Positions 1 to 14,774 of a DNA stretch of 64,000 bases are shown here, piece after piece; positions within the stretch are counted from its first letter, which is position 1; every line of letters begins with the position of its first letter. The stretch lies in the sequence record MN508616.2; one strand, given 5' to 3'. Position numbers and translations under genes: made by a program. The DNA is from Escherichia phage ES19. The notes beneath the pieces are model-generated. The model ran no database searches. It saw only the letters and a program-made list of their open reading frames with translations, and was not told the DNA's origin.

Positions 1-1041
1 TTACTATCAATAGCACCTAACTGATAAGCACGTTTAATAGCATCTCGGAATGGTTGATGCTTAAATAAAGGACCCCAGAATGTAGTGCAGTTAGTATCTT
101 TTGCACGCCAAGATTTTTCTTCGCGAATCATCTCGCCGGTTTCTTCGTCAAGAAATTCACGAGCATACCAACCATTCTTAGGTTTTACTACAAATCCTAA
201 TTCTAGAGCCATATCTAACAATCCAGAATAAGGATCGATACCACCGTCAAATTTAACATCAATAAAGAATTTACTTTTTTCTTTAACGGTACGAGATTTT
301 TCTATATTTAGAACAAATTGATACCCCTGAAGATCAGAACCATCTTTAATCTGGCGCTTACCGATAATGAATACAGTATCAGCCGAATACATTACGCCTG
401 TACCACCTGTCATCACGGTTTTACTAAACATTTCAATTGTTTCAATTGTATGGTTAACCGCAACACATGGAATGTTTTTAATACTAAAATAAGGAGTAAC
501 AATACGGAATAATGACTTCAGTGATTTAGCACGAGTCATATCTGCCACAGATTTTTCATTCAAGGCATCTTCCGTTTCTTTCTTAGAAGCCATATTACCA
601 ATTGAGTCGATGAATACAATAACTTTTTCACCGCGCTCAATAGCTTCAAGCTGATTCACCATATCAATTTTCAGCTGTTCAACTGACTGAATTGGTGTAT
701 GAATTACTCGTTCCGGGTCAACTCCCATGGATCGCAAATAAGCTGGAGTAATACCAAATTCGCTATCATAGAATAGACATACCGCGTCAGGATATTTGTT
801 CAAATACGCCGCAACCATAGTCAAAGACATATTTGATTTAAAGTGTTTAGAAGGACCTGCAAAAATGGTTAAACCAGACTGCATACCACCATCAATCGCA
901 CCAGAAATAGCGATATTAAGCATTGGGATTTTTGTACGGATTACATCCTTTTCATTAAAGAATTTAGATGTAGTCAGTTCAGCAGTCATTTTAGAAGTGG
1001 AAGCTTTAATCAAACGGGATTTTAAATCTGCAATAGACATT
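1..1041 (-). CDS. uvsX: UvsX RecA-like recombinase, C-terminal end cut by window edge
   Basis: Minus-strand translation from ATG at 1041 gives MSIADLKSRLIKAST...GPSKHFKSN (P-loop)...FIDVKFDGGIDPYSGLLDMALELGF; frame stays open to position 1. Confidence 0.9.
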
Positions 1042-1117
1042 CATTTTTTCCATAGGCATCATTATATTTTCCTCACTGGTTAAAGATAGAGTAATTATAA
1101 CACAATAAATTTAGGCA

Positions 1118-1966
1118 TTAATCAACTGCTATTGGATGAATAGCATTAAACTTATGAAATGCTTCTGATTTTTCTTTACGTGAAACGCACATGCGAAGAA
1201 CCTTTAATGGCTCGTCTTCTTCACCCAACGATTTTCGTTTTTCAATATTAGAAGTTTTCCAACGAGCTTGCTCTGGAAACTCTCTATTGATTTGCTCAAG
1301 CGCTCTATTATGTTTAGAATTACTACGAATTGAACTGCACCCGCCAGGAGCTTGTGCTTTTCCAGATACAACCAGATATTTGAACAAGGCCAAATGCGGA
1401 TAACCTTGATTAATTAAATTGAGAAATGCATACATATCTTCGCATAAATCAATTTTTCCATACCCAATTTGTTCTGTCGTAAGTTTTCCAAGGTCATACC
1501 ATGTATTCGTGAATCCATATGAATTTTCACGATAATTACCCCAAGATGAAGTAATTTTAAAAATTGGTAGACGAGCATGGCCATGATAATATCCGCAATC
1601 CATGGCATCCTCAACATATTGAATCAATTCATAGAACTGTTCACGAGTTAATTGATTAATTTTATCTACACATCGGCGATCATCTCTTTTTCGCATTGAA
1701 CTCATACGAATAGTAGTATCATCGTCAATCATCCAGATTCGTTGACCTGCATACATATCAGTAATTGCTTTACGAGTACCGGCAATTCCGTTTACATCAT
1801 CAGGAATAGTTATAATTTTAGCTCTAGACCCATAGGCATCATAATAAGCTTTTTCTTCGTGTTCACGCACTACAATATGGGGTTCATAATCAGTCGGAAA
1901 CATATCAAGGGCAGAAACTGCCCCTACGCGCTGATAGCTTGGAATTACGAATTGAATCATTTCCAC
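1118..1966 (-). CDS. DNA-modification glycosyltransferase at the beta-gt locus (not T4 beta-gt-like; possibly T2/T6-type beta-glucosyl-HMC-alpha-glucosyltransferase)
   Basis: 282-aa ORF between uvsX and gene 42 where T4 has the 351-aa beta-gt; sequence does not resemble T4 beta-gt as I recall it; function inferred from synteny. Confidence 0.5.
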   Translation of the reverse strand: MEMIQFVIPSYQRVGAVSALDMFPTDYEPHIVVREHEEKAYYDAYGSRAKIITIPDDVNGIAGTRKAITDMYAGQRIWMIDDDTTIRMSSMRKRDDRRCVDKINQLTREQFYELIQYVEDAMDCGYYHGHARLPIFKITSSWGNYRENSYGFTNTWYDLGKLTTEQIGYGKIDLCEDMYAFLNLINQGYPHLALFKYLVVSGKAQAPGGCSSIRSNSKHNRALEQINREFPEQARWKTSNIEKRKSLGEEDEPLKVLRMCVSRKEKSEAFHKFNAIHPIAVD

Positions 1967-2697
1967 TCACCGTTATAATCTTTTTTCGCAATATGAGTTT
2001 CGCCAGTTTTCAACCAATGATCAACCAAGTAAAAATGACGAGAATATACATGAAGACTTCCGACATTCCATATAATGGAACCTGCTTTATACTGACGAGT
2101 TGAATCACCTGCATTCAAATCAGATACTAATTTATCTAGTACGTATTTTTGCCACGCATAATCATTACGGAATCCGAAGACCACGTCATTTGAACGCATG
2201 CTTACTACTGCATTGACTTTCTTATCACGAATCAAGTACTGTACTGTATTCGTACACATGAAATCTGACATACCATCTTTACGGTAGTCAAACTGCATAG
2301 ATGGGCGAGTATAAATCATGATACCACGCCGAGAATCAGGATTTTGACCAAGTTCAAATAAACACATATCATACTGAGCATAGTTATCTTCTGACCAAAT
2401 AGCCCAACCATAATTCGAGTTAATTTCGCCTTTAGAAGATGCTACCTGCTGCCAAATCTTTGGTGTTTCACCTGGAATATCTTTAACAAACAAGCTCTTA
2501 GATTTATACCATTCAAGTTCACGCTGAATGTATTCATCATTAAGAGCGCCAAAAATAAACGGTTCATCTGCTACAAATGATGCGCCAATAATTTCAATAG
2601 TTTTAACACCAGTTTTATCAACTACGAAATCTTTTTCTTTTAATGCAAGCCCCAAATGAAGACGGATTTCTTCAACTGTCATAGAGTCACTAATCAT
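1957..2697 (-). CDS. 42: dCMP hydroxymethylase gp42
   Basis: 246-aa ORF MISDSMTVEEIRLHLGLALKEKDF...; thymidylate-synthase-like fold protein matching T4 gp42 in length and sequence. Confidence 0.9.
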   Translation of the reverse strand: MISDSMTVEEIRLHLGLALKEKDFVVDKTGVKTIEIIGASFVADEPFIFGALNDEYIQRELEWYKSKSLFVKDIPGETPKIWQQVASSKGEINSNYGWAIWSEDNYAQYDMCLFELGQNPDSRRGIMIYTRPSMQFDYRKDGMSDFMCTNTVQYLIRDKKVNAVVSMRSNDVVFGFRNDYAWQKYVLDKLVSDLNAGDSTRQYKAGSIIWNVGSLHVYSRHFYLVDHWLKTGETHIAKKDYNGEWK

Positions 2698-2850
2698 TTA
2701 AACCTCAATTGATACATTCATATTTAACTTGTAACAGTAATAAACCCCAACCTAAAATAATAGTTGGAATCATAAGAGGAACCGTTACACTATAGTATAT
2801 ACTTATTATAATCATCAAGATTAAAAGCAATGCTGTTATAATTTTGCTTT

Positions 2851-3102
2851 TCATTCCTTCTCTCTGATGATAATTACCTGATTTGGCTGCGCAGACTTTT
2901 TAGTTTCACCCGCAATTGACCAAATAAATGTAATAAACCAACCAATAATTGACCAGTTAAACAGTAAAGATGTGAAAAAGATTCCTACTGTCGATTTTGA
3001 CCCACGCATCAAAGCAATAAACCATGGAAGCATGTATATAATAATAGCCAACACACCTGAAACTAAAACCATAAAAATTGAACCTGCTACTAAAGTTTCC
3101 AT
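2851..3102 (-). CDS. imm: Imm superinfection immunity membrane protein
   Basis: 83-aa ORF with two hydrophobic helices (IFMVLVSGVLAIIIYMLPWFIALM; WSIIGWFITFIWSIAG); position next to gene 42. Confidence 0.8.
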   Translation of the reverse strand: METLVAGSIFMVLVSGVLAIIIYMLPWFIALMRGSKSTVGIFFTSLLFNWSIIGWFITFIWSIAGETKKSAQPNQVIIIREKE

Positions 3103-13556: not shown

Positions 13557-13574
13557 AAGGGCCGAAGCCCTTTA
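13557..13574 (-). other. intercistronic RNA hairpin with UUCG tetraloop
   Basis: Minus-strand AAAGGGC-UUCG-GCCCTTT overlapping the a-gt stop; identical to the hairpin at 8847. Confidence 0.5.
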
Positions 13575-14774
13575 TTTTGTAATAATGTCAAACTGTTCTT
13601 TAAAGCAGAAGCTTGAATCTTGATGCTGATACAAAAATTCATATGCTTTTTCTCGCTCACGGTCATAAAGAGCTCGGTCAGATGACAGTTCTTTAATACG
13701 TTCAAACGTTGATTCCATATCATTTTCATCAAACCAAATGATACCGCTATCATGCGAGGTCAAAGGAGTATTATCAACACGGAATTTTAAATTTTCGCCA
13801 GTAGATTTCCAAAATACCGGAATTGTTCCACATGCACCAAGCTCGAGATGAGTATATTCTAAAGAACGTTGTAGATATTTTTTGTCCAACTTACTCAGCT
13901 GATAACCAAAACCGGATTTACTCATGCGTTCAAGCATTTCGCTATTTACATAACGGTCAAGAATTTGCGTTGGCAAATTAGGAGCAATTTTAATTTGGTC
14001 TACTTGATGAAGACGATAATACTCGTATGGAATTCCCTTTTCTTTAATAGGAATGAACGCTGGAGAACGTTCCAGACCTTCCATAATAGTACTTAGTCCT
14101 GCAGGTTTAAGATGTTTTTCATGAAAATCAAACATCTGGTAAAAACCTTTCCATGTAGTAGTACGACCAATCCAACGGTTGATATTCATGTTAATTTCAG
14201 AAACATCTTTCCAGTAGGTTGATCGAACCTTCGCAATATCCATAGGAGGCTGAAAGTTATATACGGTCGGTGCTTCTTCAATATCATCAAACAGAGAAAC
14301 GGTTTCTGGATACCATTCTTTCATCAGAACTTTATTAAAATCACCATTATCAGAATGGCTAAAAATAACATCAGCTCGACGAACAGTTTCTTCTAATCCC
14401 AAATTTCGGCGCAAAGAAAGAGAAGAATGGTCATGTTGATAAACTACAACACGAACAGAAGGTTTAATGTTATCAATAATTTTTTTATAGTTATTAATAG
14501 TGTCTTCTTCAACCGAAGTAGCAGGAACTGAATTGATAATTAGAATATCACAATCATTTACCAGCTTAAGTGTTTTATCATATTCTTTTGCCAATAAAAC
14601 CGGAATTGAAAATGATTTATAATCATGCGCGCAATTACGAGTAAATGATTTATCTTTAGCATAAACCAAAGTTACTTCATGACCATTCTTAATAAACCAA
14701 TCACGTTGCTCAAGAGAAAATTTAGTTACACCACAACCTTCAAGACCTCGAGCCATAAAAATACATACTTTCAT
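13572..14774 (-). CDS. a-gt: alpha-glucosyltransferase (HMC-DNA alpha-glucosylation)
   Basis: 400-aa ORF MKVCIFMARGLEGCGVTKFSLEQRDWFIKNGHEVTLVYAKD...; length and sequence match T4 alpha-gt. Confidence 0.9.
   Translation of the reverse strand: MKVCIFMARGLEGCGVTKFSLEQRDWFIKNGHEVTLVYAKDKSFTRNCAHDYKSFSIPVLLAKEYDKTLKLVNDCDILIINSVPATSVEEDTINNYKKIIDNIKPSVRVVVYQHDHSSLSLRRNLGLEETVRRADVIFSHSDNGDFNKVLMKEWYPETVSLFDDIEEAPTVYNFQPPMDIAKVRSTYWKDVSEINMNINRWIGRTTTWKGFYQMFDFHEKHLKPAGLSTIMEGLERSPAFIPIKEKGIPYEYYRLHQVDQIKIAPNLPTQILDRYVNSEMLERMSKSGFGYQLSKLDKKYLQRSLEYTHLELGACGTIPVFWKSTGENLKFRVDNTPLTSHDSGIIWFDENDMESTFERIKELSSDRALYDREREKAYEFLYQHQDSSFCFKEQFDIITK

Follow-up and report, generated by a model that had tools for sequence, protein, structure and literature searches.

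A beta-glucosyl-HMC-alpha-glucosyltransferase gene between uvsX and gene 42 of Escherichia phage ES19, with T6/QOTSP-like virion DNA expected

The gene that lies between uvsX and gene 42 in Escherichia phage ES19 (1118..1960, minus strand, of the 64,000-nucleotide stretch of record MN508616.2 analyzed here and called the window) is, with a probability that we put at about 0.93, the Tequatrovirus beta-glucosyl-HMC-alpha-glucosyltransferase (ba-gt), in a phage whose DNA is expected to be T6/QOTSP-like. The T2/T6-style diglucosyl pattern suggested in a first-pass annotation of the window is borne out by the assignment of the protein to PHROG 842, its distance of three residues from the T2 protein, a GT-A model with a DxD motif, the effect of a gene deletion in T6, and the DNA chemistry of phages QOTSP and NR1. 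The enzyme itself is long known and stands here in its commonest genomic arrangement, which was resurveyed in 2024 to 2026. The original cloning of ba-gt is reportedly that of Winkler and Rueger (1993, Nucleic Acids Res).

Read from a GTG codon, the minus-strand open reading frame (1966 to 1118) encodes 282 amino acids. The frame given in the first-pass annotation is real, but its GTG start at 1966 was dropped and its length corrected to 280 amino acids, since the ATG at 1960 shares bases with the TGA stop codon of gene 42 (ATGA, within aaATGAtt; the DNA reads ...GGTGAGTGGAAATGATTCAA...) and the corresponding ATG is the annotated start in five relatives (Yersinia phage fPS-65, T2, QOTSP, NR1, and EL). 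The limits that follow from this start are given in Table 1. The gene order uvsX, ba-gt, gene 42 was confirmed as first described; uvsX, the downstream neighbor, starts at 1040 and is separated from ba-gt by merely 77 bp (1041 to 1117), and the region of fPS-65 that carries an annotated uvsX is 99.2% identical to the window. The G+C content is nothing unusual. Scans of positions 900 to 2900 stayed at chance level both for promoters (13 found, 9.3 ± 2.8 expected) and for terminators (1 found, 1.0 expected).

Table 1. Features in and around the ba-gt locus and at the partner gene (positions in the window)
Feature	Position	Strand	Remarks
uvsX, RecA-like recombinase	1..1040	-	Truncated by the window start; T4 uvsX homology, fPS-65 annotation
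Cassette without DNA homology to T4	1029..1974		Replaces the T4 segA + beta-gt segment (~1.94 kb in T4); blastn
ba-gt (ggt, TAGT), beta-glucosyl-HMC-alpha-glucosyltransferase	1118..1960	-	280 aa; open reading frame, ATGA overlap, PHROG 842, PF20691
DDD (D79-D80-D81), DxD motif of the predicted GT-A fold	1718..1726	-	Invariant in the alignment; after strand E74-77 in the AF2 model
Codon R11 (CGC), N-terminal IPSYQR motif	1928..1930	-	Intact in the window; His in T2
Gene 42, dCMP hydroxymethylase	1957..2697	-	Open reading frame; 96% DNA identity with the T4 gene 42 region; annotated in relatives
a-gt, DNA alpha-glucosyltransferase	13572..14774	-	400 aa; Pfam AGT PF11440, E 1.8e-237; would make the alpha-glucosyl-hmC acceptor

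Two further features of the locus were recorded. A terminator-like hairpin (1926..1906, minus strand), with a 9-bp stem followed by a T-rich tail, falls inside codons 12 to 19 of ba-gt; the fPS-65 record labels this site "terminator." We attach no meaning to the hairpin, since it is within a coding sequence. Between gene 42 and imm lies a hydrophobic 49-aa open reading frame (2705 to 2854, minus strand), which is annotated in QOTSP, NR1, and EL; the T4 RefSeq record is without it and shows a 153-bp gap. Over its first 4 kb, the window matches Escherichia phage ES21 (Tequatrovirus; MN508617, an unannotated record) at 100% identity and the other 29 records listed, all of them T4-like phages of Escherichia, Shigella, or Yersinia, at 97.7 to 99.2%; records matching this part at 95% identity or more number 443 in all.

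The protein matched PHROG 842 ("beta-glucosyl-HMC-alpha-glucosyltransferase") over nearly its whole length (E 2.4e-89; residues 2 to 277 on positions 3 to 269 of the 270-position profile) and Pfam PF20691 (TAGT, "TET-associated glycosyltransferase") at 38.3 bits, against a curated gathering cutoff of 27.5; a Pfam RNA_binding match (E 0.28, under cutoff) was disregarded. The proteins of RB3 and fPS-65 are 100% identical to that of the window, those of QOTSP and NR1 differ from it by 2 residues (both have R11 and P251), and that of EL differs by 6. The comparison with T2 and T6 glucosyltransferases proposed at first pass returned 98.9% identity for T2 (3 differences: R11H, I101V, and P251S in T2) and 98.2 to 98.6% for the T6 records (4 to 5 differences, the 5 of MH550421 including an amber codon). 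The T2 and T6 genes (ggt, g-gt) share with ba-gt of the window the length of 280 amino acids, the uvsX/42 locus, a start codon that overlaps the stop of gene 42, and an alpha-glucosyltransferase (alpha-gt) partner, with no difference of substance; at the three T2 sites, the window has R11 (H in T2), I101 (V), and P251 (S).

The two public T6 genome records each carry a different lesion in this gene, and both lesions are absent from ba-gt of the window. In MH550421, codon 10 is TAG (amber) and the coding sequence is annotated from M20 (261 aa); in NC_054907/AP018814, one Asp of the DDD motif is missing (WMIDDTTIR; 279 aa), and the protein of NC_054907 (YP_010067197.1) is used in publications as the exemplar of TAGT. 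These lesions may be stock mutations or sequencing errors.

A tblastn search of 50,697 phage records with ba-gt matched 688, of which 471 reached at least 95% identity, and roughly 200 of the 688 were Klebsiella/Enterobacter-type homologs at 60 to 80%. T4-type beta-glucosyltransferase (beta-gt) at 90% identity or more was found in 29 phage records only, versus about 470 with the ba-gt of the window type, and a 2026 survey counted alpha-GT together with beta-GT in 6 of 753 phages, alpha-GT with TAGT being the majority arrangement (PMC13216743). The arrangement in the window is thus the common state in Tequatrovirus and T4 is the exception, so that what looks like a difference from T4 appears because T4 is the outlier. 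TAGTs of T4-like phages of Klebsiella, Enterobacter, and Serratia (Slopekvirus, Karamvirus, and others) belong to the same family, adjoin gene 42, and are 49 to 65% identical to the protein of the window, with which they have all invariant motifs in common. Some of these phages carry a beta-gt homolog beside, or in place of, alpha-gt.

One record (PV654520.1; 142 kb), titled Pseudomonas phage vB_PSGBLB0006, encodes a protein 100% identical to ba-gt of the window and is probably a Tequatrovirus contaminant or carries a mislabelled host. In Escherichia phage vB-Eco-KMB26 (OR539218), the gene 42/uvsX interval contains a TAGT that is 97% identical to that of the window, as well as a beta-gt homolog of 358 aa that is 55% identical to T4 beta-gt; its alpha-gt is 100% identical to that of the window, which makes three glucosyltransferases in this phage. 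The same 55%-identical beta-gt homolog occurs in CHD16UKE1 and PM136.

A search of 5.8 billion proteins with ba-gt returned 11 clusters only, all phage-like and assigned to PF20691 wherever annotated. Nine sequences from these clusters, down to 28 to 32% identity, made up the family alignment, in which I6-P7-S8-Y9, R11, D79-D80-D81, D175, and G206-G207, among others, are invariant; ba-gt of the window keeps every such residue. In its AF2 model, the DDD motif comes directly after strand 74-77, at the canonical DxD position, where pLDDT is about 90; three loops (residues 130 to 140, 191 to 211, and 241 to 249) are of low confidence. The predicted fold is GT-A, GT2-like, with a DxD motif that we take to bind the metal and the UDP-sugar, as in GT-A enzymes generally. 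GT2-like GT-A enzymes are inverting; from this likeness an inverting mechanism is presumed for ba-gt, which would fit a beta linkage formed from UDP-alpha-glucose, and we infer its catalytic residues. The published model of the T6 TAGT is likewise GT-A, sister to GT2 (PMC13216743). Searching PDB sequences with ba-gt gave chance matches only (E > 1) and no solved relative, and neither a solved structure nor in vitro kinetics came to light for any TAGT. GT2 GT-A enzymes (e.g., BcsA cellulose synthase, K4CP chondroitin polymerase, and TarP/TarS) are only 9 to 16% identical to ba-gt, which, unlike them, is soluble and single-domain, has about 70 extra C-terminal residues, and would act on a DNA-linked glucose.

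The partner alpha-gt is intact and occupies the T4 position, after gene 47, and its PF11440 match (residues 14 to 368) covers all 355 profile positions (1 to 355). Identity is 91.5% to T4, 99.5% to T2, 100% to QOTSP, and 99.8% (1 residue) to NR1, in keeping with two alleles about 91.5% identical to one another: a T2-type allele (window, T2, QOTSP, and NR1) and a T4/T6-type allele (T4, T6, and EL). The first-pass description of this gene as T4-like holds at the family level (91.5%, PF11440) and fails at that of the allele, which is T2-type rather than T4/T6-type. The substitutions between alleles gather at residues 47 to 52, 89 to 118, and 254 to 276, a patchiness that suggests mosaic exchange or selection on a surface.

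With these genes, the pathway would run as follows. Gene 42 would make hm-dCMP, to be built in at replication; alpha-gt would place alpha-glucose on about 70 to 75% of hmC; and ba-gt, with UDP-glucose and the DDD motif, would add a second glucose, beta-1,6 onto the first, to give gentiobiosyl-hmC. Any hmC out of the reach of alpha-gt would stay bare, as the phage is without a T4-type beta-gt. The virion DNA is expected to hold about two-thirds gentiobiosyl-hmC and one-quarter to one-third bare hmC, with mono-alpha-glucosyl-hmC scarce and beta-glucosyl-hmC absent; we infer these shares from relatives of the phage. The activity of ba-gt itself, alpha-glucosyl-hmC DNA plus UDP-Glc to gentiobiosyl-hmC, is likewise predicted from near-identical genes in the literature, where gentiobiosyl-hmC is the product of ba-gt (PMC6024577, PMC11078745) and where deletion of ba-gt from T6 abolished gentiobiosyl-hmC and left alpha-glucosyl-hmC only (PMC11078745). 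By HPLC/MS, the DNA of QOTSP, NR1, and Solly, which match the window at about 98% identity in the corresponding region, contained about one-third 5-hmdC and two-thirds gentiobiosyl-hmdC over a low background of alpha-glucosyl-hmdC, with no beta-glucosyl-hmdC, and the authors named the TAGT gene, which is syntenic with T4 beta-gt, as the source of the second glucose (PMC13390438). T6/QOTSP-like rather than T2-like DNA is expected here because the invariant residues of ba-gt are intact and alpha-gt equals that of QOTSP.

Near-identity alone is no guarantee of a T6-like proportion, since the T2 enzyme differs at 3 residues and T2 DNA is reported to be 70% alpha-glucosylated and only 5% gentiobiosylated (PMC11078745, PMC6024577). 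A ba-gt that is present but weakly active, leaving mostly mono-alpha-glucosyl-hmC (about 70%) and a few percent gentiobiosyl-hmC, would thus resemble T2 also in its partner, the T2-type alpha-gt allele (99.5%). We nonetheless consider this outcome improbable. The window retains the family-invariant R11 where T2 has H11, the T2 N-terminus is confined to T2 records and SV76, and QOTSP and NR1, with R11 and P251, a ba-gt 2 residues away, and an alpha-gt 100% or 99.8% identical, reach about two-thirds gentiobiosyl-hmC (PMC13390438).

The T2 allele deserves comment in its own right. At position 11, T2 has His where Arg is invariant across the nine-sequence alignment, and the exact T2 N-terminal 40-mer was found in seven T2 records and SV76 only, among 686 matching records. 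The low gentiobiosyl content of T2 more likely stems from ba-gt (R11H or P251S) than from alpha-gt, because QOTSP and NR1 share the T2-type alpha-gt and are highly gentiobiosylated. Tentatively, and at somewhat less than even odds, R11H, perhaps together with P251S, and not the alpha-gt allele, may be the cause of the difference between T2 (5%) and T6 (72%) in gentiobiosyl-hmC, with the allele of the window (R11, intact DDD) in the high-activity class; as part of the same reading, the otherwise invariant IPSYQR, which holds R11, would be a nucleotide-binding motif of ba-gt. If true, this would account for a 60-year-old difference between T2 and T6.

A T6-like ba-gt remains our reading of the window, and it has also to be set against the enzyme that occupies the same slot in T4. 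There, beta-gt (b-gt; PF09198; GT-B, CAZy GT63) is likewise UDP-glucose dependent, forms a beta linkage, and modifies hmC-containing phage DNA. It is, however, a 351-aa GT-B protein that acts on bare hmC, whereas ba-gt of the window is a 280-aa predicted GT-A protein whose acceptor would be alpha-glucosyl-hmC. That the two proteins are unlike, as claimed at first pass, was upheld: BLASTP of the 280-aa against the 351-aa sequence gave chance fragments only (best E 3.4), and PF09198, which T4 beta-gt matches at E 9.4e-98, found no match in the protein of the window. Nor were the two Rossmann domains of the GT-B fold seen in ba-gt. The two things that the first-pass annotation had named as speaking against it, similarity to T4 beta-gt and lack of a glycosyltransferase fold, were accordingly not what we found, the model being GT-A with the DDD motif. 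In tblastn searches of the whole 64-kb window, T4 beta-gt had no match at E ≤ 10, and ba-gt and alpha-gt showed no second copy beyond the two genes.

At the DNA level, blastn homology to T4 stops at 1028, within uvsX (85.6%), and restarts at 1975, at the 3' end of gene 42 (96.1%); from this break and resumption, the intervening cassette (Table 1) is read as a clean replacement of the T4 segA and beta-gt segment. In T4, the homing endonuclease gene segA lies between uvsX and beta-gt; the interval in the window is without it, and tblastn of T4 segA against the whole 64-kb window gave chance fragments only (E 1.4 and 6.7).

This syntenic position between uvsX and gene 42, and the loose labels "b-gt" or "beta glucosyl transferase" in many database records, could be taken to mean that the protein stands in for T4 beta-gt, glucosylating bare hmC directly so that all hmC would be glucosylated. 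We judge that very unlikely, given the lack of sequence similarity, the GT-A rather than GT-B fold, and the 25 to 33% bare 5hmC, with beta-glucosyl-hmC undetected, that relatives with the same gene keep (PMC13390438; 10.64898/2026.02.25.707755). Transfer of another sugar (e.g., arabinose, as in Mosigvirus/RB69-type phages) or to a non-DNA acceptor can be all but dismissed: TAGT homologs in phages without alpha-gt or beta-gt do imply further specificities (PMC13216743), but the divergent members of the family do not exceed 65% identity with the TAGT of the window, which is 97 to 100% identical to the enzymes of phages with proven gentiobiose DNA (PMC13390438, PMC11078745).

As the gentiobiosylating enzyme of a phage without T4-type beta-gt, ba-gt would bear on host defense. 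The first-pass expectation that the DNA would resist a different set of restriction systems has backing in print from relatives, through results with Brig1, BapA, and Brig3 (PMC11078745; bioRxiv 10.64898/2026.02.25.707755). Brig1 did not degrade T6 DNA in vitro, but it degraded DNA of T6 lacking ba-gt, and the deletion phage was more sensitive in vivo (PMC11078745). The hydrolase BapA cannot strip gentiobiosyl-hmC; T6 DNA frees no glucose and DNA of the T6 g-gt deletion does (10.64898/2026.02.25.707755). In the same work, bare hmC exposes T2, T6, and Bas35-45 to restriction by Brig3, a 5hmC glycosylase.

Annotators and users in phage therapy can expect this phage to carry mostly gentiobiosyl-hmC in its virion DNA, with some bare hmC and no beta-glucosyl-hmC. 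On the pattern of the papers on T2, T6, and the BASEL phages, the phage is predicted to be sensitive to 5hmC glycosylases such as Brig3 and to GmrSD/BrxU-type enzymes. It would also be Brig1 sensitive in vivo, although its mature DNA would resist Brig1, and it is predicted to resist glucose stripping by BapA.
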